From the IMG/VR virus record IMGVR_UViG_3300029549_000273: DNA of 64,000 bases; one strand, given 5' to 3'. The notes under the pieces are model-generated. The model was given only the letters and a program-made list of their open reading frames with translations. It ran no database searches and was not told the DNA's origin. This stretch comes from a virus (lineage: Duplodnaviria > Heunggongvirae > Uroviricota > Caudoviricetes). Numbering within the stretch: the stretch's first letter is position 1; each line of letters opens with the position of its first letter. Of this stretch, positions 1,766-46,477 are shown one piece after another. Both the position numbers and the translations under genes were made by a program.

Positions 1766-2125
1766 TTATGTATGGCCCAAATTTCTCTTTATATGGAAAT
1801 CTTTCCGTAGTGCATAATACAGGGTGTCTCCCTCTGCCTTAATGGTTGGCAGGCACTCTCCCGTGTTGTCTCTGGCATACGCAAGGCACAGAATCGTGCC
1901 AAACCGGCAATCGCGCAGCCGCCCTTCTGCTTGCGCACGTCTGACCAATTTCATGCTTGCTTCGGAAGATAGTTCAAGCCGATAGATTTCTTCATCGCCG
2001 ATGTGTGTCCACGAAATCACAAATGTGTCAAGCCAGTCCCCCATCCGCTCGGATTCTTTCTGCATCCAATGCCGGATTTCGGCATGGGTCGCTGTCCAAT
2101 GAATATCGAACTTCTTTGTGTTCAC
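1766..2125 (-). CDS. Hypothetical protein (119 aa), probable GTG start
   Basis: The ORF has GGAGGAGGG 7 nt upstream of the start. No recognisable motif was found. Confidence 0.45.
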   Translation of the reverse strand: MNTKKFDIHWTATHAEIRHWMQKESERMGDWLDTFVISWTHIGDEEIYRLELSSEASMKLVRRAQAEGRLRDCRFGTILCLAYARDNTGECLPTIKAEGDTLYYALRKDFHIKRNLGHT

Positions 2126-2184
2126 TATACGCCCTCCTCCTATGAGGAATGTTATCTCAAGGTTTTCGTGTGCAACACCGCTCC

Positions 2185-2307
2185 TTACCCGCAGAGTTGT
2201 TCAATCACACACCGCAAGAGTAGCAGAGCAAGGAAGGCAACACCAGCAATGATGCGGGCGCGGACGCGCTGTCTCTCTTGAATTTGTTCGAGATTGCTAT
2301 TCATCAT
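2185..2307 (-). CDS. Possible small membrane peptide (40 aa)
   Basis: The sequence is MMNSNLEQIQERQRVRARIIAGVAFLALLLLRCVIEQLCG. An AGGAG motif lies 10 nt upstream. The ORF is short and was not in the supplied ORF track. Confidence 0.2.
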   Translation of the reverse strand: MMNSNLEQIQERQRVRARIIAGVAFLALLLLRCVIEQLCG

Positions 2308-2539
2308 AGAAAAATCGCTCCTGTCTCGTTAGATTTGGTGGGGGATTATTGACTTATGTCAGAGATTGAAATTGCAGAATTTGGCTGGATGCCTATTTAG
2401 TATCATTGTCAGTTGTAATTGACACCAAATGTGCGTGTTGGCTGTGTTATTTTGCAGCGTGTGCGTGGGGCGTGGACTCCTATTTGGTGTCGATGACATC
2501 TACGGTCTACACCAAGTAGGTATGCAAAGCAGCTCCTCT

Positions 2540-4042
2540 TTACAAATTGCCCGTTATTTTTAGATTGATTTTCACCTGCTTTTTGTCGTCCACGATGATA
2601 GAATCTATAATTCTTCTGAGGTCCATATTGGTTGCAGATTGCAGGCTGAGAAACCGCTCAATTTCCGTCATCGCTTCATTCGTGATGCTTTCGATGGTCC
2701 TTTCCTGTGTGCGTTGTCCTTCGAGGAGAATAAGCTGGTCATCAATCACATTGATAGATTCGTTGATTTCTGCTGTCTTACTTTTCAACGCTTCCATCGT
2801 GATGACATCATTGGCGTACATCTCCATATACTTTTCCAACTTTGCCTTCAGCTTGACCTTTTTCGCCTCAAGCGTTTGAGCGTCTGGCTTACTTCCCTCC
2901 ACCGCATTTGCTTCCTTAAACTTGCGTGCGATTTCCTGAGCGATGGACTCTTTGTTAGAGACAACCTCTCTCAGGTAGGTGGAGAGTGTTTCAATTAGGT
3001 CATCCTCTCTGACGATTGTGTTGTTGGAACATCGTTTTGCGGTATACTGGTTGTTGGTTGGACATCGCCAGTAAATGTAATCGGAGTTTGGATAATGCGT
3101 CACTCTTCGTGAGAAGGCGCGTCCGCATTCCTTGCAGCGTATCAGGGTGCTGAATAAATGCCTGTTGCTGTATCGCCCAGTGAAATGCGTGTATTCGGTC
3201 GCGTATTGTTTTCTCCTCTGCTCCAAGATTTCCTGTGCCTGCTGGAAGCGTTCGGGCGTTATGATGGCCCATTCCGGGCGGTCATGGTGGTAATACTGTT
3301 CCTTCGGCAGCGCCTTCGTCGTTCCTTCCAGAAAGTCCACAACGGTATAGCGGTGATTGATGTAATGTCCGCTGTAAATTGGGTTCTCCAGTATTCTCCG
3401 TATGTTCCTCTGGTTCCAATCGTTACCAAACTTGGTTTTCATCTGCTTTTCGGCAAGTGTGATGGCGATAAGGCGGCATCCAAGTCCCTCGTCGATGTAG
3501 AGATGATAGATTTCTCTGACGACCTCCGCTTCCCTCTCGTTGATTTCCATAGTGAAGTTATCAATCCGGTCATATCCGAAAATTCGCGGCGGTACTCTTC
3601 CTTTCTTTGATGTAATATTCTTCCCGAACTTGACTCGCTTAGACAGGTTCGAACTTTCCTCCTGCGCCACAGCGCCGAGCAGCGTGATGACGAACTCCGA
3701 TTCGCCAAGCACTTTCTGGCTGTTATTGACAAAAATCACGTCGATTCCTCTCGATTTGAGCTGTCGAATCGACGTGAGTAGGTCTACAGTATTTCGTGCA
3801 AATCGTGAGACATCCTTGACCACAAGAAGGTCAAATAGCCCAAGTTTTGAGTCACTCAGCATTTTGTTGAACGCATCGCGCTTTTTGAGCTGTCTGCCTG
3901 TAATTCCTTCGTCCGTGTAGACATTGACCAGATGATGCCCATTCTGCTTTGCAAAATCCGAGAAAAACTCCATCTGATGCTCTAAGCTATCTAATTGCCG
4001 TTCCTCGTCGGTGCTAACTCGTGCGTACCCGCACATTCTCAT
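2540..4042 (-). CDS. Large serine recombinase (resolvase/invertase catalytic domain, recombinase domain and zinc ribbon)
   Basis: The N-terminal YARVSTDEERQLDSLEHQ carries the catalytic-Ser motif. A Cys cluster is present at CKECG...CPTNNQYTAKRC. The C-terminal coiled coil and 500-aa length are typical of phage/ICE serine integrases. A ribosome-binding site AAAGGAGG precedes the start. Confidence 0.88.
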   Translation of the reverse strand: MRMCGYARVSTDEERQLDSLEHQMEFFSDFAKQNGHHLVNVYTDEGITGRQLKKRDAFNKMLSDSKLGLFDLLVVKDVSRFARNTVDLLTSIRQLKSRGIDVIFVNNSQKVLGESEFVITLLGAVAQEESSNLSKRVKFGKNITSKKGRVPPRIFGYDRIDNFTMEINEREAEVVREIYHLYIDEGLGCRLIAITLAEKQMKTKFGNDWNQRNIRRILENPIYSGHYINHRYTVVDFLEGTTKALPKEQYYHHDRPEWAIITPERFQQAQEILEQRRKQYATEYTHFTGRYSNRHLFSTLIRCKECGRAFSRRVTHYPNSDYIYWRCPTNNQYTAKRCSNNTIVREDDLIETLSTYLREVVSNKESIAQEIARKFKEANAVEGSKPDAQTLEAKKVKLKAKLEKYMEMYANDVITMEALKSKTAEINESINVIDDQLILLEGQRTQERTIESITNEAMTEIERFLSLQSATNMDLRRIIDSIIVDDKKQVKINLKITGNL

Positions 4043-6405: not shown

Positions 6406-6482
6406 TGGAGCAACGTACCGGATTCGAACCGGCACCGCCGGTTTGGAAGACCGGAGTGCTGACCGTTAAACACCAACGCTGC
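6406..6482 (-). tRNA. tRNA-Gly(TCC), CCA encoded
   Basis: The reverse complement is GCAGCGTTGGTGTTTAACGGTCAGCACTCCGGTCTTCCAAACCGGCGGTGCCGGTTCGAATCCGGTACGTTGCTCCA. The anticodon loop is CTTCCAA. Confidence 0.75.
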
Positions 6483-6646
6483 TTGTTGCAGCTCCCGACA
6501 ATCGAGGCATCGTTTACTTGCGCGTCATGGGCGCTTTCGCAAGCCGCCGTGTATACCCACCGGCTCCGCGCCTGAATTGTCGGGCATTGTCATTCTTCGT
6601 GAGGCTTTCTGCACACGCTCACATCAGCCGAGAGCGACTCGGCAAC

Positions 6647-6723
6647 TGGTTTCGGGGGCGGGACTCGAACCCGCGTCAACCGGCTTATGAGGCCGGACTG
6701 GAACCATCTCCAGGCACCCCGAT
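6647..6723 (-). tRNA. tRNA-Met(CAT); the 1:72 pair is mismatched, so it could be the initiator type
   Basis: The reverse complement is ...CCGGCCTCATAAGCCGG...GCGGGTTCGAGTCCCGCCCCCGAAACCA. The anticodon loop is CTCATAA and the T-arm is GCGGG/CCCGC. Confidence 0.65.
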
Positions 6724-6732
6724 ATATATGGC

Positions 6733-6868
6733 AGGGACGGTTGGGAATCGAACCCACCACAAGCGGTTTAAGGTGAAGAGAGGACCGTCAACCGTTGCCG
6801 TGTGGAGTCGAACCACACGGCTTGGGGAATCGAACACCCGCCCAGGTCCTCTGGTCCGGGACCGTCCC
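6733..6868 (-). ncRNA. Atypical 136-nt tRNA-like structured element with three T-arm-like hairpins and a nested acceptor-like stem
   Basis: The outer stem pairs GGGACGG with CCGTCCC, and the inner stem pairs GAGGACC with GGTCCTC. The inner span is exactly 73 nt. T-loop-like motifs are GGTGTTCGATTCC, GTGTGGTTCGACTCCACAC and GGGTTCGATTCCCAA. The element cannot be parsed as one or two canonical tRNAs by eye. Confidence 0.3.
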
Positions 6869-6949
6869 GGATGGCATAGCCCCGCTTAGATTGTCACACA
6901 CTGATATCAGGCCGGACACATCCGAGCAGTGCAGTTTTCAGCGAGGCTA

Positions 6950-7026
6950 TGGTGATGCCAGCGAGGCTCGAACTCGCACTCTTCAGCGTGAAAGGCTGAT
7001 GACTTTACCAATTCGTCTATGGCACC
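6950..7026 (-). tRNA. tRNA-Glu(TTC), CCA encoded
   Basis: The reverse complement is GGTGCCATAGACGAATTGGTAAAGTCATCAGCCTTTCACGCTGAAGAGTGCGAGTTCGAGCCTCGCTGGCATCACCA. Confidence 0.65.
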
Positions 7027-7134
7027 GAAGGAAAGAGATATGGCTGGGCAAACGGCTTTTACTGCCCTGTCGGCACGGAATGGATACCGCCCCGGTGGGT
7101 TCTCACCACTATATTCTGTTAAGCCTATCTCTTG

Positions 7135-7210
7135 TGGCGGTCCCTGCTGGACTCGAACCAGCGACTTTCTGATTAACAGTCAGACGCTCTGCCAACTGAG
7201 CTAAGAGACC
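7135..7210 (-). tRNA. tRNA-Asn(GTT), CCA encoded
   Basis: The reverse complement is GGTCTCTTAGCTCAGTTGGCAGAGCGTCTGACTGTTAATCAGAAAGTCGCTGGTTCGAGTCCAGCAGGGACCGCCA. This is a canonical cloverleaf. Confidence 0.8.
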
Positions 7211-7217
7211 AAATAAA

Positions 7218-7289
7218 GTTGGAAGCCGGACTTGACCCGGCGACCTACGCATTACAAATGCGCTACGCTACCAACTGAGCTATGTCAGC
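7218..7289 (-). pseudogene. tRNA-Thr(TGT)-like remnant abutting tRNA-Asn; the acceptor stem cannot pair
   Basis: The 5' part GCTGACATAGCTCAGTTGG...GCGCATTTGTAATGCGT and the T-arm GCCGGGTCAAGTCCGGC resemble the Thr(CGT) gene at 8295..8370. The 3' strand TTCCAAC is not complementary to the 5' GCTGACA. Confidence 0.35.
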
Positions 7290-7401
7290 ATTTTGCTCGG
7301 CTCCCGGTCGCGGACGCCTTCCTGCCAGCCGCCCAGCACTTAGCAATGATGCCAGCCGCCAATCACTTAGCTTTTTGCGCTTCCTCGCCCGCATACCGGG
7401 A

Positions 7402-7488
7402 TGGTGCTATCGAAGGGACTTGAACCCTTACGCTGTTTCCGGCAGCAGATTTTGAGTCTGCCGTGTCTGCCAATTTCACCACGATAGC
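7402..7488 (-). tRNA. tRNA-Leu(CAA), long variable arm, CCA encoded
   Basis: The reverse complement is GCTATCGTGGTGAAATTGGCAGACACGGCAGACTCAAAATCTGCTGCCGGAAACAGCGTAAGGGTTCAAGTCCCTTCGATAGCACCA. Confidence 0.8.
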
Positions 7489-7499
7489 ATATTAAGAGA

Positions 7500-7586
7500 T
7501 GGTGGGCCGTGCTGGACTCGAACCAGCCGAGCCGTGAGGCACCAGATTTACAGTCTGGCCCGCTACCTGCTACGGAATACCGGCCC
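7500..7586 (-). tRNA. tRNA-Tyr(GTA), long variable arm, CCA encoded
   Basis: The reverse complement is GGGCCGGTATTCCGTAGCAGGTAGCGGGCCAGACTGTAAATCTGGTGCCTCACGGCTCGGCTGGTTCGAGTCCAGCACGGCCCACCA. Confidence 0.75.
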
Positions 7587-7616
7587 ATATTTGCCGCCAA
7601 AGGCGGCTTGGTGTGC

Positions 7617-8270
7617 TTACCCCCAATGCTGCTGCACAGGATTTCGGGAGCAATATTCCTTATATTGCTGCAATACTTCAACGCCACGCCCCGGTGAATC
7701 GGTTCTGTAGTCTACCGAATATGCAGCAAAGGCATCTCGTACTTTAGCGGCATATTCAGTGATAGTTCCCAGCATTTTGTCCTGCTGCTGACTCATGGCC
7801 GCCATCGTATCGCCAAACTTCATGGAATATTGGGCTTCCCATTCATCCACAAAATCTTCCTTGCTGGTGTTCCAGATATACCACGGCGGACATTCGCAAT
7901 CATCAGCCTTATAGAGCATATCCATGCCCCGCATTGAGTGGTTGATATAATCCATCAATGCGTGATACAATTCGCGGTATGCTGTGGCAAACGCCTGCCT
8001 ATTTTCATCGCCGTGTTGAAAGAGATACCCCGAAATCAAAACGCTGGCATAGCTTTGTTCAACAAAGCCGTACATATCAGCCAGAATTTGTTTGCGGCGG
8101 ACAAGTTCTTCTGTTTTCTCAGGAATATCCGACAGTTTTGGAATAGCATTAAGCACCACGCTTTTTCCGACTAATGCAGCTACCGCATCCGCCGCTCGTT
8201 CGTACCGATTGTCGTACCGATTGGTGACTTTTAATGCTTGCTTTAAGTCTGCTGAATCCAACATTGCCAT
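7617..8270 (-). CDS. Hypothetical protein (217 aa) embedded within the tRNA array
   Basis: Clean ORF with AAAGGAGA 6 nt before the ATG. It is flanked by tRNA-Tyr and tRNA-Thr. Confidence 0.55.
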   Translation of the reverse strand: MAMLDSADLKQALKVTNRYDNRYERAADAVAALVGKSVVLNAIPKLSDIPEKTEELVRRKQILADMYGFVEQSYASVLISGYLFQHGDENRQAFATAYRELYHALMDYINHSMRGMDMLYKADDCECPPWYIWNTSKEDFVDEWEAQYSMKFGDTMAAMSQQQDKMLGTITEYAAKVRDAFAAYSVDYRTDSPGRGVEVLQQYKEYCSRNPVQQHWG

Positions 8271-8294
8271 TCTCCTTTTCTAATGTTTTATTTC

Positions 8295-8370
<76 letters not shown>

Positions 8371-8389
8371 ATTTTTCTCTTTGGGAGAA

Positions 8390-8464
8390 TGGCTGAGATG
8401 GCTGGATTCGAACCAGCGAGTCAGGGAGTCAAAGTCCCATGCCTTACCACTTGGCTACACCTCA
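8390..8464 (-). tRNA. tRNA-Gln(TTG), CCA encoded
   Basis: The reverse complement is TGAGGTGTAGCCAAGTGGTAAGGCATGGGACTTTGACTCCCTGACTCGCTGGTTCGAATCCAGCCATCTCAGCCA. Confidence 0.7.
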
Positions 8465-38235: not shown

Positions 38236-39347
38236 TTATTCAAGAAAGTCCTGAAGCATCTTCCCTGCCTTTCCGTTGCGTAGCTTATCGAGTGTTTTAT
38301 CTGTAACCTGACGGACACGCTCTCGCGTTAAGTCCATTTCGTCCCCGATTTCTTTGAGGGTATAAGCACAACCATCCTCCAATCCGAATCGTAAGCGAAG
38401 CACACAGGCGTCTCGTGCGGGCATATCGTGCAGGATTTTGTCCATCGTTTCCCATAGTGCCTTCCCTGACGTTGAAATTTCCGGGTTATCCCACTCGTTA
38501 TGGCTTGGGATGAATTCCGAAAGCGGTGTGTTGGAATCGCTTGCGGCGTCCGAATTGACGGGCGCATCCAACGAGTCCGGCTTCCGGTACTGGAGCGAGT
38601 GTTGGATGATGCGCAGTTTTTTCTGCTGCTCCCTTTTTGAAAGGGAATCCCACGCATCCCCCTCCATGTATTTTGCGATTTCTAAAGGGTCATCACAAGG
38701 TAAGCCTTTTTGCTGCATTTGTTCTTTTGCATTATTGACGCTCCGCCTGCCCTCCGCAACATAGATGGGCTTGCGAATGGCTGGGTCCGTCGTGGCAAGC
38801 GCTCTTGTGATGTTTTGCCTTATCCAGAAGGTTGCGTAGGTGGAAAACTTCACATTCCTCGAAATGTCAAAAGAGTCGATGGAACGCATGAGGCCAATGT
38901 TGCCCTCCTGAATGAGGTCCATGAACACCATAGAATCGGCTGAGTTTATATATTTCTTTGCGATGGACACAACAAGCCGAAGATTGCCCTCAACAACCTT
39001 ATCTTTCGCCCGTCTTCCTGCTTCTATGGCCTTCATCAGGTCTTTCTTGATTTCGGGGTCAACTGCATTCCCGCTCTCCTCGGCAATTACCCGCAGCGTT
39101 TCGAGCTGTTCGGCAGCGGCATTCCCCTTCTGCACTTTTTCAATACAGCGATTCGCTTCCACCTGCGGCATAATGGGAATACTGCCAATTTGGCTGAGAT
39201 ACATCGCCACATGGTCGCCGATATTTCCCGGCTGCTTCGCTTCGGTCTCCTGTTCATTCGAAGCTGCGATTTCTTCTGTTTCAGGCTGCCTTTCAATGGC
39301 TTCATAGGCAAGCGCACGGTCAGCGGCTAAATTACTGGTATTCGTGA
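38236..39347 (-). CDS. sigA: RNA polymerase sigma factor, sigma-70 family (RpoD/SigA-like), about 370 aa, probable GTG start
   Basis: Region 1.2 is VAMYLSQIG. Region 2 is NLRLVVSIAKKYINSADSMVFMDLIQEGNIGLMRSIDSFDISRNVKFSTYATFWIRQNITRAL. Region 4 is YTLKEIGDEMDLTRERVRQVTDKTLDKLRN. The ATG of the listed ORF sits inside the promoter, so the start was moved to the in-frame GTG at 39347. Confidence 0.7.
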
Positions 39348-39379
39348 TGTCAACCACCCCCCCTTCATTGAATGCAGCA

Positions 39380-39408
39380 ATTATACCACACAATAGCTTA
39401 CTTGTCAA
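39380..39408 (-). promoter_or_regulatory. Consensus promoter TTGACA-N17-TGgTATAAT for the sigma-factor gene
   Basis: The reverse complement reads gaTTGACAagtaagctattgtgtggTATAATtg. Confidence 0.5.
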
Positions 39409-39965: not shown

Positions 39966-40493
39966 TTACACCTCCGAAATTTCGATTCCGTACTTTTCCA
40001 ACATGAGTTTGCGTTTCATGAGATACTTTTCGGTTCGTTTTCCCTTCGCGTCTTCCACGATGCGTTTACCGTTGCGAAGGTATACGAAATCTGCCTTGTA
40101 GACCATTGGTCGAACCCGCTTGCCATTTGGCCGTGTATAGCCCTCGACCAGCGTGAAGTCCTGCTGGAGCCGCAGGTCCTGGATTGCACCGCCCTTGTAC
40201 TGCAAATAAAGTTCATCGAAGCGGCGTGCCTCCCGCTTGCTGGGGAATTTCACGGTTTCTCCATCCACCACGCGGAAAACCTTTACATTGCGATATTTGG
40301 ATGGCTCAGCAGAGTCCGCTTCTTTCGGCTGTTTTTGCCTTTTCTGTGCTTCCGACTGTTTTTTTGTTCGCTGCTGGTTCTGTTCGCGCTTCTGCTCGTC
40401 GAGCTTTGCACGCACCTGAATCTGTGCGGAAAGCGGCAGGCTATTGATGTCAATACCCACCTTCAGTTCCTCCGCCTGTTTGTGGCGCAGCAT
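39966..40493 (-). CDS. DUF1064-like (phage-associated putative PD-(D/E)XK nuclease) protein with a Lys/Gln-rich N-terminus
   Basis: The pattern FPSKREARRFDELYL...Q..F.L..........YKADFVY....K.VEDAKG.RT was matched from memory of the DUF1064 family. Confidence 0.35.
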   Translation of the reverse strand: MLRHKQAEELKVGIDINSLPLSAQIQVRAKLDEQKREQNQQRTKKQSEAQKRQKQPKEADSAEPSKYRNVKVFRVVDGETVKFPSKREARRFDELYLQYKGGAIQDLRLQQDFTLVEGYTRPNGKRVRPMVYKADFVYLRNGKRIVEDAKGKRTEKYLMKRKLMLEKYGIEISEV

Positions 40494-40836
40494 TTTGGTT
40501 GCTTCCTTCTCGCAGCAGAATCAAATTCATGACCCTCCATACCGTCCAGATACACAGATGGCGAACTATGCTTCTGCTGGTGCCGTGCAGGTCGGCGATT
40601 TGCGAAAACGTCATTCTGTCACGAAAATACTTTTGGACGATATCGCGGTTTCGCTCAGGAAGTGTGTCCAGCGCTTCATCGAACATCTCGTTAAAGCCCG
40701 GTGTAAATGAAATTTGATTCTTACCCCAGGCTGAAATTTGATTTTTACACCAGGCAAAGGATGTATCGTACATAATGGCCGCCTTCCGCCACTCCTCCGG
40801 GGCGAACTCAGGCTGGTTAATCTTGTCTGTCTTCAT
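40450..40836 (-). CDS. Small sigma-70 region-4-like helix-turn-helix protein (128 aa)
   Basis: The internal start MKTDKIN follows GGAGGTG. The helix-turn-helix motif is LPERNRDIVQKYFRDRMTFSQIADLHGTSRSIVRHL. A tandem 24-bp duplication produces a KNQIS repeat. Confidence 0.5.
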   Translation of the reverse strand: MKTDKINQPEFAPEEWRKAAIMYDTSFAWCKNQISAWGKNQISFTPGFNEMFDEALDTLPERNRDIVQKYFRDRMTFSQIADLHGTSRSIVRHLCIWTVWRVMNLILLREGSNQNAAPQTGGGTEGGY

Positions 40837-42079
40837 GGTCAGCACCTCCGTCCATCTTGGCCCCGCAATCCTCGCAGTATTTTTTGGTAGGCTTGTCCCA
40901 ACTGCCCTCAGTGGTAATGACAAAGCCGCACGCAGGGCAACACCACTCGTCCCCGCCAAGATGCGCCCAGCGGGTGTGCATTACCGGGGCCACGTCAGTG
41001 GCGGGAAAATCTCTTCGTGAGCTGCGCCACAGCATGAGCAGCATCTCGCTGACCGGTCTGGTTCGGTCCTTCCTCACGGCTTTCCTCACGCATCGCAGAT
41101 GCCCGCCGTCCGGGCAAAGCACACCGACGCCGTATGGGACAGTATCCTTCACCGCTTCGAAGACGTCTGCGGGCATAACGTAGTAGTTGTAGTCCGCGAT
41201 GAAGTTGTGCCCGTTAGGAGATTTGAAATCCTCCACAGAGGACTTGACCTCGTAGGCGTAGAAGTCCCCCTTCTCAATGCCGGAGGTCGAATTGTTGAGC
41301 GGCTGAAAGCGCATATAGTCCACGCGGATTTTGTGGTTCGTAGAGTAGTCGAATGTGACCTCTCTCGCCCAGTAGATGCGTGGGTCGTTGCGCGGGTCGA
41401 TGTATCGCTCCAGCATGGCAGAGAGCTGGCGAGTGTGTTCCTTCCGGGTGAAGGCATCACTCGTTTCCGGACAGAATTGAGCTGGCTTTCCAAGGATGAA
41501 ATGGAACGGCAGAGCCTTTTCCAGTACGTCGATAATATTCTGAAGGGTCCCCTGCCCGCATTGGCGCAGATTCTTCAGTTTGCCGCTCTCTATCAGTCGA
41601 ACAACATCGCCGATACTTTGGGCACCACTGAACATAAGGCAGTTCTTGGTGCGAGTCGAGAAATTGAGGCACTGAAACGGAACAGAATCGCACAACTCCT
41701 CGATTTTTTTCCAGTTGCCATTCTCAATGGCCTCCTTCAAAGCAGAGGCGAGAGGGCTGCCTGCAAACCGGCGCATTTCTTTCAGGATACCCCCCGCATA
41801 TTTGGGGTGACGCAGCCTCCTTATGGCGAGGTCGAAGCAAGAGTAGAACTTGCCGATGTCAATTTCCAGTGCGTTTGCGCATTGTGTTGGTGTAAGACCG
41901 TCGCGGTAGCGTTTTAAGATAGCTTCCCGCTCCAACTCAGGGAATGTGGCGATGGCAGCGTCTACAGCTGCGTCGAAAGAGTCAGAGAACTCAGCACACG
42001 GCATACACAAGCAATCCTGCATCAAATTCTTTCGCCATTCTACTGACGAGCGAAGCAGGAAACGCTCCTCAGTGTTCAT
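40817..42079 (-). CDS. Multi-domain protein: sigma-r4-like helix-turn-helix, RNA-polymerase-alpha-CTD-like helix-hairpin-helix, and a C-terminal zinc ribbon
   Basis: The helix-turn-helix is AILKRYRDGLTPTQCANALEIDIGKFY. The helix-hairpin-helix is FSTRTKNCLMFSGAQSIGDVV...GQGTLQNIIDVL. The C-terminus is CPACG...CEDCG. Confidence 0.5.
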   Translation of the reverse strand: MNTEERFLLRSSVEWRKNLMQDCLCMPCAEFSDSFDAAVDAAIATFPELEREAILKRYRDGLTPTQCANALEIDIGKFYSCFDLAIRRLRHPKYAGGILKEMRRFAGSPLASALKEAIENGNWKKIEELCDSVPFQCLNFSTRTKNCLMFSGAQSIGDVVRLIESGKLKNLRQCGQGTLQNIIDVLEKALPFHFILGKPAQFCPETSDAFTRKEHTRQLSAMLERYIDPRNDPRIYWAREVTFDYSTNHKIRVDYMRFQPLNNSTSGIEKGDFYAYEVKSSVEDFKSPNGHNFIADYNYYVMPADVFEAVKDTVPYGVGVLCPDGGHLRCVRKAVRKDRTRPVSEMLLMLWRSSRRDFPATDVAPVMHTRWAHLGGDEWCCPACGFVITTEGSWDKPTKKYCEDCGAKMDGGADHEDRQD

Positions 42080-43187: not shown

Positions 43188-44582
43188 TTATTTTTTTGCC
43201 TCGGCTGCTGCATGGGGAAGCCGCACCCAGCCGCCCTTATGACGAACAAGCTGGATTTTCTTCATGCTGACCATAAGCGGCTTTCCATCCGTGAGTAGGC
43301 TTAATGCCCTGCCATAGCTGGAGCAGCCCTTGGAAACGTATTTGCGATTGCCGTAGACCACGATATCTCCCGGCTGCATGGCATATCTCTGCTTTCTGGT
43401 CGAGGTTCGGCCCTTTGACTTCTTACAGCCACGGAACCGGCGCAGATTTTCGCCGTCAAGGTTATGATTGCGGTTCGTCCTGCCGGAGGACAGCTCGTTG
43501 CCAGAACGGATAACTCCCTTTTCCCGTGTGTCGTAATATTTGGCGTCATAGAATTTGGATAGGACTCTGTTGTTTCGCCTGTATTTCTGGAAGACCTCTG
43601 TTTCGCATCTGGCTTCCGGACGCAGCTCGCCCATGCAGTAGGCATCCGTAGCGCAGGAATACGGGAGGCCGAGGTTGGTGCGGACGCGCTTGGAGATGAC
43701 GCCATAGGTCATGTGTACTTCCGCAACACCCTGGAAGCGAGCCATCGCACGCTGATAGAGAATCCAGCGCACGCTATTCATAAACGCTTCGCCGGTATAT
43801 TTCCGCAGAGGCTTATCGAAGCCCCACAGCTTCCCGCCCTCCTTGTGATTGGCAGGTGTGTTGCACTTCTCGCAGCAGGTCGCAAGCTCCCTCATGCTGT
43901 TCCCATGCAGACCCTTCCAGTAGTAGGCGTGATGGACATGAAGGATAGCGCCGTCTTTCAGGCCTCTCTTGCAATACACACAGGTATAGTGGTCCCGTTC
44001 AAAGACCGCTTCCCGCAGCGTATCGTAGCCGTACTGCGGTCCATGCTGATAGTCCTTGCCCTGCGGGACAGGTTCCCCTGCCTCCAGCGCCGCAAGGAGC
44101 TGTGTATCGTATGTCGCGGCCTTGATAAAGACATCCGTGACAGGCATGACAGACAGATAACGGGAGATAATATCCAGGTGCCGCTCCACCTTGTTGTCCA
44201 GAGACGGAGCAATCCAACCGGGCTTTTTGCCTGATACACGGTTATTGAACCGTGCAGCCCGATACCGCAGGCGGTTTCTGCGCGTCCGGCGGTACGCTCG
44301 GCAGTCGTCATGGCGAGAGCGCTCGTTCGTGAGCATATCATATTGCTGCGATACGACCTCTTTTGCCTTTGTCTTAATGCTGACGCCGATATGCTCATAT
44401 CCGGTGCCGACGCACATTTCGATGGGCTGGGTATAGGTACTGGTATCGTAGGTCAGCTGGATGGTGAACGGGTTCCGCTTCGCAATCACAGCGCGGCCAT
44501 CCTTCAACAGATGGCGCACTTTGCCGTAATTTTCGGTCGGCATCAGCCGTTCACCGTTTGCACTTAAAACACATACTGGCAT
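43188..44582 (-). CDS. iscB: IscB-family (OMEGA-type) RRXRR/HNH protein with apparently degenerate RuvC catalytic residues
   Basis: The N-terminus MPVCVLSANGERLMPTENYGKVRHLLKDGRAVIAKRNPFTIQLTY is a PLMP/RRXRR domain. The arginine-rich bridge helix is RAYRRTRRNRLRYRAARFNNR. The HNH motif is CVYCKRG...HVHHAYYWKG...CCEKCN. The IscB-like C-terminus is GDIVVYGNRKYVSKGCSSYGRALSLLTDGKP. Aligned against an IscB sequence recalled from memory, the RuvC-I Asp is Gly, the RuvC-II Glu is Lys, and the RuvC-III His is Cys. Confidence 0.6.
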   Translation of the reverse strand: MPVCVLSANGERLMPTENYGKVRHLLKDGRAVIAKRNPFTIQLTYDTSTYTQPIEMCVGTGYEHIGVSIKTKAKEVVSQQYDMLTNERSRHDDCRAYRRTRRNRLRYRAARFNNRVSGKKPGWIAPSLDNKVERHLDIISRYLSVMPVTDVFIKAATYDTQLLAALEAGEPVPQGKDYQHGPQYGYDTLREAVFERDHYTCVYCKRGLKDGAILHVHHAYYWKGLHGNSMRELATCCEKCNTPANHKEGGKLWGFDKPLRKYTGEAFMNSVRWILYQRAMARFQGVAEVHMTYGVISKRVRTNLGLPYSCATDAYCMGELRPEARCETEVFQKYRRNNRVLSKFYDAKYYDTREKGVIRSGNELSSGRTNRNHNLDGENLRRFRGCKKSKGRTSTRKQRYAMQPGDIVVYGNRKYVSKGCSSYGRALSLLTDGKPLMVSMKKIQLVRHKGGWVRLPHAAAEAKK

Positions 44583-44616
44583 CTTATTTTTTCCTTTCAC
44601 GCTGCGGGTGCAGTTT

Positions 44617-44775
44617 CCTGTCATTCGGTGGGGGACGTCAACTGCGTGATGCTCCGTTTGCGGGGGGGGCTGCGGTATAGCTACCTGTCATTTGGTGGGG
44701 GACGTCAACCTGTCAATCCGGATTGCAATTTAATCGTACGGTATAGCTCCCTGTCATTTGGTGGGGGACGTCAAC
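44617..44775 (-). repeat. CRISPR-like mini-array of three 26-bp direct repeats with 41- and 40-nt unique spacers, abutting and overlapping the iscB start
   Basis: The repeat CCTGTCAT(T/C)TGGTGGGGGACGTCAAC is at 44617-44642, 44684-44709 and 44750-44775. The spacers share only a terminal cggtatagct. No cas1/cas2 is present. Confidence 0.45.
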
Positions 44776-44804
44776 TGAAGTTGAGTTTGCCGAGTATATT
44801 CCAA

Positions 44805-45105
44805 ACGACAAACCAAAAAGGTAAATCAGCACTTACCGCTCACGCGGCGTTACTGTGGTCCACATCGCCAAGGATATACCGGGTTTGATGGTACGCACAC
44901 TTCTCCTTCCCCTCAGAGATGTTTAATACGCACCCGCAGAGCGGCGGACTTGTGGAGTATCCGCCGGTGCCTATGTATTCCGGCATATCGTAGCCTTGCG
45001 GCTGAGGCTTATTGACGAGGCTTACTCTCCTTGCGGGTCATAAGCCACACCAAATGACAGGAGGCTGAGCCGGAGTTTCCGGCGCACCCGCCCGCCATTC
45101 GGCGG
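44805..45105 (-). ncRNA. Structured roughly 300-nt RNA element (copy A) with GNRA-capped hairpins, an anti-repeat complementary to the mini-array repeat, and a 3' intrinsic terminator; candidate omega-RNA/tracr-like RNA
   Basis: On the minus strand it contains CCCGCCgaatGGCGGG, GCCGGaaacuCCGGC, AGCCgcaaGGCU, and the segment CCUGUCAUUUGGUG, which is complementary to the repeat CACCAAAUGACAGG. It ends with the hairpin GGUAAgugcugauUUACC followed by UUUUUGGUUUG. An identical copy is at 46160-46465. Confidence 0.4.
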
Positions 45106-45112
45106 GGTAAAG

Positions 45113-45463
45113 CTAAAGAGCAGCGTCCTGATTGACAGGACATTCGAGACTCATGTTTTTTCTCTTCTCACAGGACTCTGCCTGCGACCACAAGCTGTTT
45201 GGCAGATTGAGCACCGTTACGAGGACATCCCCGGCAAACAGATAGACGTGCCGGTGATATACTCGAATATTGTTGATGGTTTTGTTTTTGAAGCGGATGG
45301 ATGTAAGGTATCCATTCAGGTGGCCTCTGGTCTCCGAGTGCTTCACGCCAAAGTCAAAGGCTTTCTGTGCATTGCGCACGGCTGCTCTTTTGCCGAGACC
45401 AGCACGCTGTTTTGTACGCTTCCTCGCGTGTTTACTTACCTGCGCTGACATGGTTCGTATCAT
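45113..45463 (-). CDS. Hypothetical basic protein (about 115 aa)
   Basis: The ORF MIRTMSAQVSKHARKRTKQRAG... is Lys/Arg-rich. The start is uncertain and it overlaps its neighbour. Confidence 0.3.
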   Translation of the reverse strand: MIRTMSAQVSKHARKRTKQRAGLGKRAAVRNAQKAFDFGVKHSETRGHLNGYLTSIRFKNKTINNIRVYHRHVYLFAGDVLVTVLNLPNSLWSQAESCEKRKNMSLECPVNQDAAL

Positions 45464-46034
45464 TCTGATGGACAGACACCGCGTTGCGATTGGCCTGCCG
45501 AATGAGCGACAGGATATCGTCCAGCCTGTTTCCGCCAAAGTACACAAGTAATGGCTGATACAGCGCCAATACCGCCACAACAAAGCAGACGGCATCAGCA
45601 GTACCCGCAGGGAAATCCGCCCGTGCCATAACTACAGAATACAGGCTTGCCAGCAGTACAATCGCCGCTGTGAGGGAAAGAACGGTATGGAAGAATAAAG
45701 CGAGCGCCTTACTCACAGCACCGCAGTTGGCGAACTTCTTCTCCACGAAATACTTCGCAGCCGGCAAGCCCACCAGGACTGCCAGCAGCACAAGCTGGAT
45801 ACCAAGAGAGACTTTGGGAATCTGGAACTCCCGGCTCTGGAAGAACAGCGTCACGCGGCTGCCGACGTTCAGTGTTTCAATGAGTAGGAATAGCCACAGA
45901 ACCGCAAGCACCAGCGGTCTCGGCGCATTGAGCTTGCCCACGGCGAAATCGCACAACACCCATAGCACAATGAGTACCGCAAGCTGCGGCATCATGAGCC
46001 GCCCTAATTCCAGAGCAAAACTAACAAAAGTCAT
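45432..46034 (-). CDS. Hypothetical polytopic membrane protein (200 aa)
   Basis: Multiple hydrophobic segments. It is flanked by the two copies of the 300-bp RNA element. Confidence 0.5.
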   Translation of the reverse strand: MTFVSFALELGRLMMPQLAVLIVLWVLCDFAVGKLNAPRPLVLAVLWLFLLIETLNVGSRVTLFFQSREFQIPKVSLGIQLVLLAVLVGLPAAKYFVEKKFANCGAVSKALALFFHTVLSLTAAIVLLASLYSVVMARADFPAGTADAVCFVVAVLALYQPLLVYFGGNRLDDILSLIRQANRNAVSVHQNDTNHVSAGK

Positions 46035-46063: not shown

Positions 46064-46135
46064 TCCTGTCATTTGGTGGGGGACGTCAATCCTGCGGGCC
46101 AGATGATACTCCCTGTCATTTGCTGTGGCACATCA
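46064..46135 (-). repeat. Second mini-array of two repeats (one degenerate) of the CCTGTCATTTGGTGGGGGACGTCAA motif
   Basis: The motifs cctgtcatttggtgggggacgtcaat and cctgtcatttgctgtggcacatcaac are separated by 21 nt. Confidence 0.35.
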
Positions 46136-46159
46136 ACGATTAAAAAGACGAGAATTCCC

Positions 46160-46465
46160 CTACTTGAGAAAACCAAAGATTTGGTAAATCAGCACTTACC
46201 GCTCACGCGGCGTTACTGTGGTCCACATCGCCAAGGATATACCGGGTTTGATGGTACGCACACTTCTCCTTCCCCTCAGAGATGTTTAATACGCACCCGC
46301 AGAGCAGCGGACTTGTGGAGCATCCACCGGTGCCTATGGATTCCGGCATATCGTAGCCTTGCGGCTGAGGCTTATTGACGAGGCTTACTCCCCTTGCGGG
46401 TCATAAGCCACACCAAATGACAGGAGGCTGGGTCGGAGTTTCCGGCGCACCCGCCCGCCATTCGG
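46160..46465 (-). ncRNA. Second copy (copy B) of the roughly 300-nt structured RNA element, more than 95% identical to copy A
   Basis: Near-identical to 44805-45105 with a handful of substitutions. It is the same terminator-capped structured element. Confidence 0.4.
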
Positions 46466-46477
46466 CGGGAGTGCAGA

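Follow-up and report, generated by a model that had tools for sequence, protein, structure and literature searches.

How could an IscB protein with a damaged nuclease site make use of a repeat array and a separate structured RNA? The question is raised by a 64,000-nt stretch of viral DNA (IMG/VR record IMGVR_UViG_3300029549_000273; Caudoviricetes), called the window here at its full length, in which the open reading frame (ORF) iscB lies downstream of three direct repeats and an RNA element on the same strand. Our analyses point to a prophage-borne IscB system associated with CRISPR, in which the omega-RNA is split into two parts that act in trans and the effector would be a target-strand nickase or DNA binder guided by CRISPR RNAs (crRNAs). 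We consider this reading probable as a whole, a judgment that strikes a compromise between its two components. The architecture, a split RNA combined with an array, appears very likely, while for the predicted function as a crRNA-guided nickase or binder we lean towards acceptance with modest confidence.

The encoded protein of 464 amino acids (aa) is an IscB by profile, sequence, and structure comparison, in agreement with a preliminary description of this DNA. A Pfam RRXRR match covers residues 3-181 (E = 5.8e-41), with a weak HNH match in addition. The N-terminal PLMP/RRXRR domain and the arginine-rich bridge helix are both present, and L13-M14-P15-T16 are invariant in the family alignment. 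A phmmer search of all PDB chains returned IscB-omegaRNA complexes as the top matches (1e-30 to 8e-29), followed by IsrB and small Cas9s. An AlphaFold2 model built from 28 homologs (mean predicted local distance difference test score 73.6) likewise had IscB-omegaRNA complexes as its best Foldseek matches (8csz, E = 8e-25, template modeling score about 0.5). The protein thus shows the overall IscB fold, in which a split RuvC carries an HNH insertion and is followed by a C-terminal TAM-interacting domain. IscB is a small ancestor of Cas9; at 464 aa, the protein lacks the recognition lobe and the length of at least about 700 aa that define a Cas9, and Cas9 chains align with it over their RuvC and HNH parts only.

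The catalytic residues of OgeuIscB are D61, E193, H340, and D343 in RuvC and H247 in HNH (Kato et al., PMC9640706). HMMER alignment to OgeuIscB matches GIDPG with CVGTG, VVLEL with VFIKA, and DHYLDAYC with SCATDAYC (OgeuIscB first). G59 in RuvC-I, K154 in RuvC-II, and C310 in RuvC-III occupy the positions of D61, E193, and H340, both in this alignment and in a 121-sequence MAFFT alignment, so that the replacement of the D/E/H triad by G/K/C reported earlier stands; D313, the counterpart of D343, is kept. Among the 120 best database homologs, the same three MAFFT columns hold D in 113, E in 112, and H in 114. At the HNH site, H217-H218 align with H246-H247 of OgeuIscB, the HVHH motif holds the catalytic histidine, and the zinc-finger cysteines are kept (CxxC at 201-204 and at 237-240, the latter within CEKCN). 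D313, H217, and H218 are invariant across the 121 sequences.

The pattern of change is selective. The 114 RuvC-intact homologs define 100 columns with a conservation of 95% or more, and in 91 of these the protein has the family residue. Six of the nine lost columns fall in the RuvC-I, -II, and -III motifs (D59G, E154K, G156A, F158Y, K308Y, H310C); the other three are H241N at the last HNH ligand and two conservative changes. This concentration of losses in the RuvC motifs marks the selective loss of a single active site, as opposed to decay of the whole protein. The nearest RuvC-intact homolog is 57-59% identical, and every homolog more than 95% identical carries G/K/C. Eight distinct intact iscB alleles from other contigs give a ratio of nonsynonymous to synonymous divergence (dN/dS) of 0.08-0.2 at a synonymous divergence (dS) of 0.05-0.07, and G/K/C, HVHH, and CEKCN are kept in 13 of 13 intact copies found elsewhere. 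The iscB gene evolves under purifying selection. Judged from its sequence, the protein is confirmed as an IscB with a destroyed RuvC site and a retained HNH catalytic histidine.

The structured RNA lies upstream of iscB on the same strand and matches the Rfam HEARO model, the family now called IscB omega-RNA, with 91.8 bits, where the gathering score is 83. A second, near-identical copy that was absent from the preliminary description scores 93.7 bits and is accompanied by two repeats of its own; it stands upstream of an ORF for a 200-aa membrane protein, not of iscB. From 5' to 3', the parts of this body RNA are a first-hairpin 3' strand (CCUGUCAUUUGGUGUGG), a second hairpin (GGCUUA...UAAGCC), CGUCAAU, and AAGCC. 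Its core is common with that of active relatives and includes the AAGCC pseudoknot, the central stem, and the conserved GGCGAUGUGGAC motif. The body has no guide in cis, no 5' strand of the P1 helix, and no 5' strand of the first hairpin. The intrinsic terminator once proposed at its end amounts to a weak 5-bp hairpin with a U-run (44837-44809), which a terminator scan did not pick up.

Between the body and iscB, copies of a 26-nt core stand at 44617-44642, 44684-44709, and 44750-44775 on the minus strand, spaced 67 and 66 nt apart; for this 26-mer, allowing up to 3 mismatches, 0.00 copies are expected in shuffles. The preliminary description was right about the three copies and their spacing but took the repeat as 26 bp with 41- and 40-nt spacers, whereas the full repeat extends to 36 nt (GTTGACGTCCCCCACCAAATGACAGG[C/T]AGCTATACC), leaving spacers of 30-31 nt and giving a period of 66-67 nt. 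Repeats of constant length alternating with unrelated spacers of constant length have the form of a CRISPR array. The last repeat is separated from the iscB start codon by 24 nt, and the second array ends 31 nt upstream of the next ORF. Tandem Repeats Finder reported nothing on the arrays, as expected because the spacers are unrelated; a repeat-family search recovers the repeats. The leader between omega-RNA and array occurs in three versions among related elements.

Scans of collections of genomes, viruses, and metagenomes yielded 23 related loci of prophages or viruses; they include the isolate Oscillospiraceae bacterium CM18GR_63 (570-kb contig), IMG/VR contigs of 27-136 kb, and human-gut metagenome contigs. 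Across these loci iscB is 97-100% identical, while the arrays differ. They contain from one repeat (L091) to nine copies with a 66-nt period (L086), and at least 18 distinct 30-nt spacers in all. The variation is polarized: spacers at the trailer end, beside the degenerate terminal repeat, are widely shared, whereas those on the omega-RNA or leader side vary between loci. Spacer s05 is trailer-most in L003, L086, L089, L090, L094, and L097, and s02 is trailer-most or adjacent to the trailer-most spacer in the window, L003, L085, and others. Spacer 2 of the window also occurs in the arrays of L003, L085, L097, and others, and the middle unit of the window (R2 and spacer 2) is absent from L001 and L002. 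In L091, the array homologous to array 2 holds two extra 30-nt spacers. Features of this kind, as read from sequence, are what a functioning CRISPR array usually shows. Scattered ends of insertion sequences (IS), raised earlier as a possible source of the repeats, do not fit arrays with a 66-nt period and unrelated 30-nt spacers that differ among such similar elements.

Comparison with active relatives relates the repeat to the body. In multi-copy IS relatives (three copies in a Faecalibacterium metagenome-assembled genome, MAG, and six in a Lachnospiraceae MAG), identity starts exactly at GUCAAU-AACCCC or CUCACU-AACCCC, and the terminal hexamer pairs with AUUGAU or AGUGAG just before the (U/A)AGCC pseudoknot strand. 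The guide/scaffold junction of these IS copies lies immediately 5' of GUCAAY. Across 16 relatives, the plan reads guide, P1 5' strand GUCAAY, UA, first hairpin (starting with CCCACC), second hairpin (starting with GGGCUUG), P1 3' strand GGUUGAU, and then UAGCC.

The repeat of the window carries the parts missing from the body. It reads GUUGACG-UCCCC-CACCAAAUGACAGG, corresponding to the P1 5' strand, a CCCACC-type segment, and the missing strand of the first hairpin. GUUGACG pairs with CGUCAAU of the body to form P1, and CACCAAAUGACAGG pairs with the anti-repeat CCUGUCAUUUGGUG, which complements the repeat perfectly; the repeat goes on with CCCCCACC, homologous to CCCACC of the canonical first hairpin. 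The perfect complementarity had been recognized in the preliminary description, but on the transcribed minus strand it involves the 3' half of the 26-mer and not the 5' half. RNAalifold analysis of 13 5' domains, in which the parts from the window were joined artificially, returned P1 as a consensus helix. In the window, 7 of 7 P1 pairs form, and at three of them both sides are altered compared with the family consensus (C-G to U-A, A-U to G-C, and the seventh pair). Two of the base-pair changes are fully compensatory. By our own estimate, random pairing of seven bases at that exact place has a chance of ~0.375^7, or ~0.001. The 22 repeat variants carry their highest density of substitutions in the unpaired linker (positions 8-12), and pairing survives 19 of the 27 substitutions that fall in paired segments. 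The homology and the pairing show the repeat to correspond to the detached 5' end of the omega-RNA scaffold, comprising the 5' strands of P1 and of the first hairpin.

Co-folding gave a consistent picture. With the body and a crRNA-like fragment, in which repeat 3 is preceded by 20 nt of spacer 2, as input, the RNAcofold minimum-energy structure contains a 14-bp anti-repeat duplex, an intact second hairpin (hairpin B), and a 7-bp P1, in line with the arrangement of tracrRNA (trans-activating crRNA) and array proposed in the preliminary description. The free-energy difference (ddG) was -24.4 kcal/mol, compared with -6.5 +/- 2.6 kcal/mol (minimum -14.6) for 200 shuffled repeats. In Cas9, the repeat:anti-repeat duplex corresponds to the guide-adaptor hairpin of IscB (Kato et al., PMC9640706). 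Since the break in the RNA lies in this guide-adaptor element, the guide position would be the 3' end of the spacer, directly 5' of GUUGAC, as in a type II crRNA. In the modeled complex, the body RNA has the hallmark of a tracrRNA, with an anti-repeat predicted to pair with the repeat and the guide placed 5' of the repeat.

These results suggest the following mechanism. A break in the guide-adaptor region would divide the omega-RNA into a tracrRNA-like body, of which there are two copies, and an array between body and iscB, both probably transcribed from the minus strand. Each array unit, a spacer with the repeat that follows it, would act as a crRNA. Each repeat would pair with the body RNA, with RNase III probably taking part in processing, as it does in type II systems, so that GUUGACG:CGUCAAU would rebuild P1 and the CACCAAAUGACAGG:CCUGUCAUUUGGUG duplex would form. 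This pairing would recreate the three-way junction that canonical relatives make in cis and would place the 3' end of the spacer at the guide site. The reconstituted RNA would then load onto the RuvC-dead IscB, and the 3' 16-20 nt of the spacer may direct R-loop formation beside a target-adjacent motif (TAM). Given the residue analysis and established domain roles, a dead RuvC site means that the displaced strand cannot be cut; HNH would at most nick the crRNA-paired strand, or the complex would simply bind or block its target. A likely use would be conflict with other mobile elements or silencing of targets.

Several observations weigh against such a system. The last HNH metal ligand is N241 where the family has H; a RuvC-intact relative, P0051, also has N. 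No cas1/cas2 or other cas gene was found by PADLOC, or by Pfam among the matches listed, in the 66-69 ORFs of the window, which leaves the source of spacer turnover unexplained. The spacer search against phages and plasmids suggested in the preliminary description was run and gave no protospacer in INPHARED phages or PLSDB plasmids (blastn with 17 concatenated spacers), collections that cover the gut virome poorly. Exact 20-24-mer scans of IMG/VR with six spacers, again with poor coverage of the gut virome, found only the arrays themselves, and blastn-short against the window and all fetched loci found no spacer match. Of about 17 iscB alleles, three are broken: L001 has lost 167 bp (at L001:10812, the equivalent of window positions 43565-43731), and L002 (at ~1130) and L094 (iscB at 2103-3502) carry frameshifts. 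The omega-RNA bodies and arrays persist in all three; the effector is evidently dispensable in some hosts. Some array units are truncated, with "spacers" of 9 or 15 nt, and in some arrays small indels sit precisely where spacer and repeat meet and would shift the guide register. At these junctions (L103:205-300, L098:640-720, L095:5560-5610), spacer 1 is shorter by 4 nt and spacer 2 longer by 2 nt (...CACGCACA); the indels are unexplained if the affected spacers are under selection.

Broken alleles, junction indels, and truncated units are also what a decaying remnant might leave, an immobilized IscB IS degenerating in a prophage, with neutral RuvC changes and repeats that are functionless transposon-end fragments. 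The repeat does derive from an omega-RNA or IS end, no TnpA/Y1 transposase occurs among the neighbors or the ORFs of the window, and no transposon ends lie nearby; nor does the locus have the form of a resident IS200/IS605 element, with one iscB per element and an omega-RNA that lacks the transposon-end 5' segment in cis. Simple decay is nevertheless very improbable in view of the low dN/dS, the 91 retained positions with losses concentrated in the RuvC pocket, and an ORF that is intact though its nearest active relative is only 57-59% identical. Moreover, the two RNA partners stay complementary, with compensatory changes, and the spacers are uniformly 30 nt, mutually unrelated, and polarized in their conservation. 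A different account starts from the anti-repeat itself: in a TldR-like self-targeting repressor, CCUGUCAUUUGGUG would be the guide and the repeats would be operators before iscB and the membrane-protein gene, with autoregulation by roadblock or promoter occlusion. Perfect 14-nt complementarity does occur at five sites, all intergenic and directly upstream of genes, and 5 of 5 are oriented for a strong roadblock of the kind formed by catalytically dead Cas9 (dCas9), with the TAM side toward the oncoming polymerase. A conserved 12 nt flanks every site and is readable as a TAM, and a TTGACG -35-like hexamer opens the repeat. In the family alignment, however, the guide position lies 5' of the P1 strand, and the complementary segment is the 3' strand of the first internal hairpin, outside the guide position that a fixed guide against a promoter or operator would occupy. 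The supposed TAM, GGGGACGTCAAC, is explained as linker plus P1 5' strand, in compensatory pairing with the body; the repeat substitutions (A to G, C to U, G to A) are wobble-compatible in RNA; no sigma-70-like promoter is found at array 1; and operators do not explain unrelated 30-nt spacers that turn over between strains. This repressor is, if anything, even less credible than the remnant, and the domesticated regulator offered as an alternative in the preliminary description finds no support. Use of CCUGUCAUUUGGUG as the omega-RNA guide, our first working idea, was rejected on the basis of IS-boundary mapping in the multi-copy relatives together with the family alignment.

Somewhat better placed, yet still unlikely, is an anti-CRISPR decoy acting by biomimicry, in which the RuvC-dead effector and the tracrRNA-like RNA would capture host crRNAs with the same repeat. 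A precedent exists in phage type II-C2 Cas9, with dead RuvC, active HNH, and a tracrRNA anti-repeat matching host repeats (PMC10910872, PMC12669027), and the two tracrRNA-like genes and the lack of adaptation genes in the window would suit this role. However, the element has its own arrays beside the effector gene, whereas II-C2 loci have none; its repeat is homologous to the 5' end of the omega-RNA of the same IscB family; and in IMG/VR the repeat was found only within the same element family. We retain the split omega-RNA with its own crRNA array as the preferred reading.

Two relatives bear on the history of the locus. P0051 (L106:5600-7359, L107), a RuvC-intact relative with 54% identity, has a single canonical cis omega-RNA (P1 GUCAUG/CAUGAU). 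Its context is phage-like, with a DUF1064 gene just downstream, as in the window, which suggests that IscB has long been resident at this position in related phages. P0067 (L105, contig k141_1054384, 957-2312) is a second RuvC-degenerate IscB, with D replaced by S, E by G, H kept, and N as the last HNH ligand. Upstream of it, L105:1-960 holds three tandem full-length omega-RNA copies with a period of ~320-360 nt, each with an additional short copy of the omega-RNA 5' end 20-31 nt upstream of it. Such a tandem arrangement may stand midway between a single omega-RNA and an array.

Other features of the arrays and RNAs deserve mention. A palindrome, CAATCCGGATTG, lies within spacer 1 (44711-44725). 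Within the window, the spacer 3' ends, which are the predicted guides, match nothing at up to 2 mismatches. The 3' 14 nt of spacer 1 is complementary at 13 of 14 positions to a terminator-like hairpin (45126-45139) at the end of the ORF that precedes omega-RNA copy 1, a match that includes a repeat base and that we judged to be near chance (~0.06 expected). The lone sigma-70-like promoter match of the region (GTGCCA-17-TATCAT, 9/12; 46103-46131, minus strand) lies inside the degenerate first repeat of array 2 and would initiate a few bases upstream of the next repeat of that array. It recalls the promoters embedded in the repeats of some type II-C arrays. As a general property of these repeats, promoter activity is unsupported, the scan being negative at array 1 and giving this single 9/12 match in array 2. 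Directly 5' of the anti-repeat in both omega-RNA copies, right after the stop codons of the upstream ORFs, stands a pair of GC-rich hairpins whose only Rfam match is a sub-threshold "dauA motif" (22.9 bits against a gathering score of 45). The pair may serve as a 5' stabilizer or insulator.

The window as a whole is a phage-like element in which almost every gene lies on one strand; IMG/VR classes it as viral, and the element is integrated in the genome of a gut bacterium, Oscillospiraceae bacterium CM18GR_63. It encodes a large serine recombinase (integrase), RecE/YqaJ, a RecD-like helicase, tail and lysin proteins, UvrD, and several sigma-factor-like proteins. Three sigma-factor-like genes lie just downstream of iscB (40817-42079, 40450-40959, and 38236-39408, all on the minus strand), and one 420-aa sigma-factor-like protein fuses a sigma-70 region-4-like segment to an RNA polymerase alpha C-terminal domain, an unusual fusion. 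Nine transfer RNA (tRNA) genes are clustered at 6412-8464 on the minus strand (Rfam tRNA, 30-73 bits), as is typical of large phages. Between the omega-RNA copies, the segment 45113-46034 (minus strand) holds the membrane-protein gene and a small ORF that overlaps or adjoins it; neither has a family assignment, and in related elements both always stand downstream of array 2. The adjacency of array 2 and the membrane-protein gene is conserved in all related loci and does not imply a functional link. Coordinates are collected in the table.

Table. Features of the iscB locus, with positions in the window
Feature	Position	Strand	Remarks
iscB (464 aa, start MPVCVLS)	43188-44582	(-)	IscB with inactivated RuvC and retained HNH histidine, from alignments
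Repeat R3, terminal (trailer)	44607-44642	(-)	26-nt core GTTGACGTCCCCCACCGAATGACAGG; last 10 nt degenerate (AAACTGCACC)
Spacer 2, 31 nt	44643-44673	(-)	GCAGCCCCCCCCGCAAACGGAGCATCACGCA; 3' end abuts GUUGAC, the predicted guide position
Repeat R2, 36 nt	44674-44709	(-)	GTTGACGTCCCCCACCAAATGACAGGTAGCTATACC
Spacer 1, 30 nt	44710-44739	(-)	GTACGATTAAATTGCAATCCGGATTGACAG
Repeat R1, 36 nt	44740-44775	(-)	Leader-proximal
Leader	44776-44819	(-)	From omega-RNA 3' end to array; starts with U-run
Omega-RNA body, copy 1	44820-45063	(-)	tracrRNA-like; from HEARO match, co-fold, and alignment
Copy 1, weak terminal hairpin	44837-44820	(-)	
Copy 1, HEARO core	45016-44853	(-)	Rfam
Copy 1, P1 3' strand CGUCAAU	45017-45011	(-)	
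Copy 1, hairpin B (second hairpin)	45046-45019	(-)	
Copy 1, anti-repeat CCUGUCAUUUGGUG	45061-45048	(-)	Perfect complement of repeat
GC-rich hairpin pair	45064-45105 and 46427-46470	(-)	CCCGCC-GAAU-GGCGGG and GCCGGA-AACU-CCGGC; read from sequence
Predicted multi-pass membrane protein (200 aa)	45432-46034	(-)	No Pfam family; downstream of array 2
Array 2	46065-46137	(-)	Degenerate repeat 46137-46112, 21-nt interval, repeat core ATTGACGTCCCCCACCAAATGACAGG 46090-46065
Omega-RNA body, copy 2	46216-46435	(-)	tracrRNA-like; same anti-repeat at 46424-46411

Among known systems, the closest in layout is DelIscB, a CRISPR-associated IscB that cleaves double-stranded DNA and whose array lies upstream of the scaffold, the last repeat pairing with an anti-repeat in one non-coding RNA (ncRNA) (PMC12660989, PMC11610941). 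The window shares with it an effector of ~460 aa, a HEARO-type ncRNA with an anti-repeat, an array upstream of the ORF, and a guide 5' of the repeat. Unlike DelIscB, it places the scaffold gene first and the array after it, carries the P1 5' strand in the repeat, has a dead RuvC site and two scaffold genes, and resides in a prophage. Because the scaffold precedes the array, pairing between repeat and body must be long-range or in trans. With canonical IscB of the OMEGA type (OgeuIscB and the active relatives L004-L044), the window has in common the family (50-59% identity to the closest) and the omega-RNA core. Those relatives have a single cis omega-RNA, a guide taken from the transposon-end flank, intact D/E/H, and multiple copies per genome, whereas the system in the window is single-copy per element, lacks flanking transposon ends and TnpA, and has a split RNA with an array.

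Loss of RuvC also has parallels. A phage Cas9 with inactive RuvC and active HNH (Altae-Tran et al. 2023, PMC10910872) is listed as II-C2 in the 2025 classification (PMC12669027). Like it, the present system is phage-borne, RuvC-dead, and HNH-retaining and is accompanied by a tracrRNA-like gene; the II-C2 protein, however, is a full-size Cas9 with an SNF2 helicase partner and no array, proposed to hijack host crRNAs, whereas the window encodes an IscB with its own variable arrays. The same study described a RuvC-inactive, HNH-active IscB together with an inactivated Cas12 and a helix-turn-helix (HTH) protein, read as a nickase (PMC10910872). RuvC is dead in both IscBs, and the HNH domain, apparently active there, retains its predicted catalytic histidine here; unlike that system, the locus and the ORFs of the 64-kb window show no Cas12 or HTH partner. 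TldR and the DNA-binding-only Cas12c and Cas12m are further transposon-derived RNA-guided proteins that have lost cleavage, and binding is a possible mode here too, but they belong to the TnpB/Cas12 lineage with its single RuvC and use fixed promoter-aimed guides, whereas the window keeps HNH and a variable spacer array. Virus-borne mini-CRISPR arrays without adaptation genes, reportedly noted by Medvedeva et al. and Faure et al. in 2019, are thought to serve inter-virus conflict. They resemble the present arrays in being short, lying in a viral genome, and lacking adaptation genes nearby (here, in the window); they use host effectors and copy host repeats, whereas this element brings its own effector and tracrRNA-like RNA.

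CRISPR-associated IscBs and RuvC-dead IscB or Cas9 variants are thus each already known separately, which tempers the novelty claimed in the preliminary description. CRISPR-associated IscBs such as DelIscB are said to go back to Altae-Tran et al. in 2021. The literature that we searched, which did not take in that work, where the lineage is possibly listed, did not contain the combination found here: scaffold first, array between scaffold and iscB, P1 5' strand in the repeat, a duplicated scaffold, inactivation of RuvC under purifying selection, and residence in a phage.

The locus addresses an unresolved question, namely how one transposon guide RNA became the crRNA:tracrRNA pair of Cas9. Whether the ncRNA of CRISPR-associated IscBs is processed into two parts was stated to be unknown in a 2025 study (PMC12660989). 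Here the two RNA parts are separate genes, the position of the break can be resolved to a single base pair, and unsplit relatives are available for comparison. As a tentative and rather doubtful extension, the split of an omega-RNA into a tracrRNA gene and a crRNA array may have arisen independently of Cas9 in a temperate phage, with the repeat as a detached transposon-end segment, spacers still gained and lost without cas1/cas2 in the 64-kb window, and the effector a natural HNH-only IscB nickase or binder directed against competing mobile elements; together with the tandem omega-RNAs of L105, such a history would sketch, step by step, how a transposon RNA with a fixed guide could turn into a CRISPR locus with multiple guides.

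A phage would here carry an RNA-guided system equipped with an array of its own, and the compact 464-aa, naturally RuvC-dead and HNH-retaining protein is a candidate natural nickase or programmable binder. Because the isolate Oscillospiraceae bacterium CM18GR_63 carries the element, these predictions are experimentally testable. With a strain-variable array beside a tracrRNA-like gene, the step from transposon guide RNA to CRISPR would be open to direct study.

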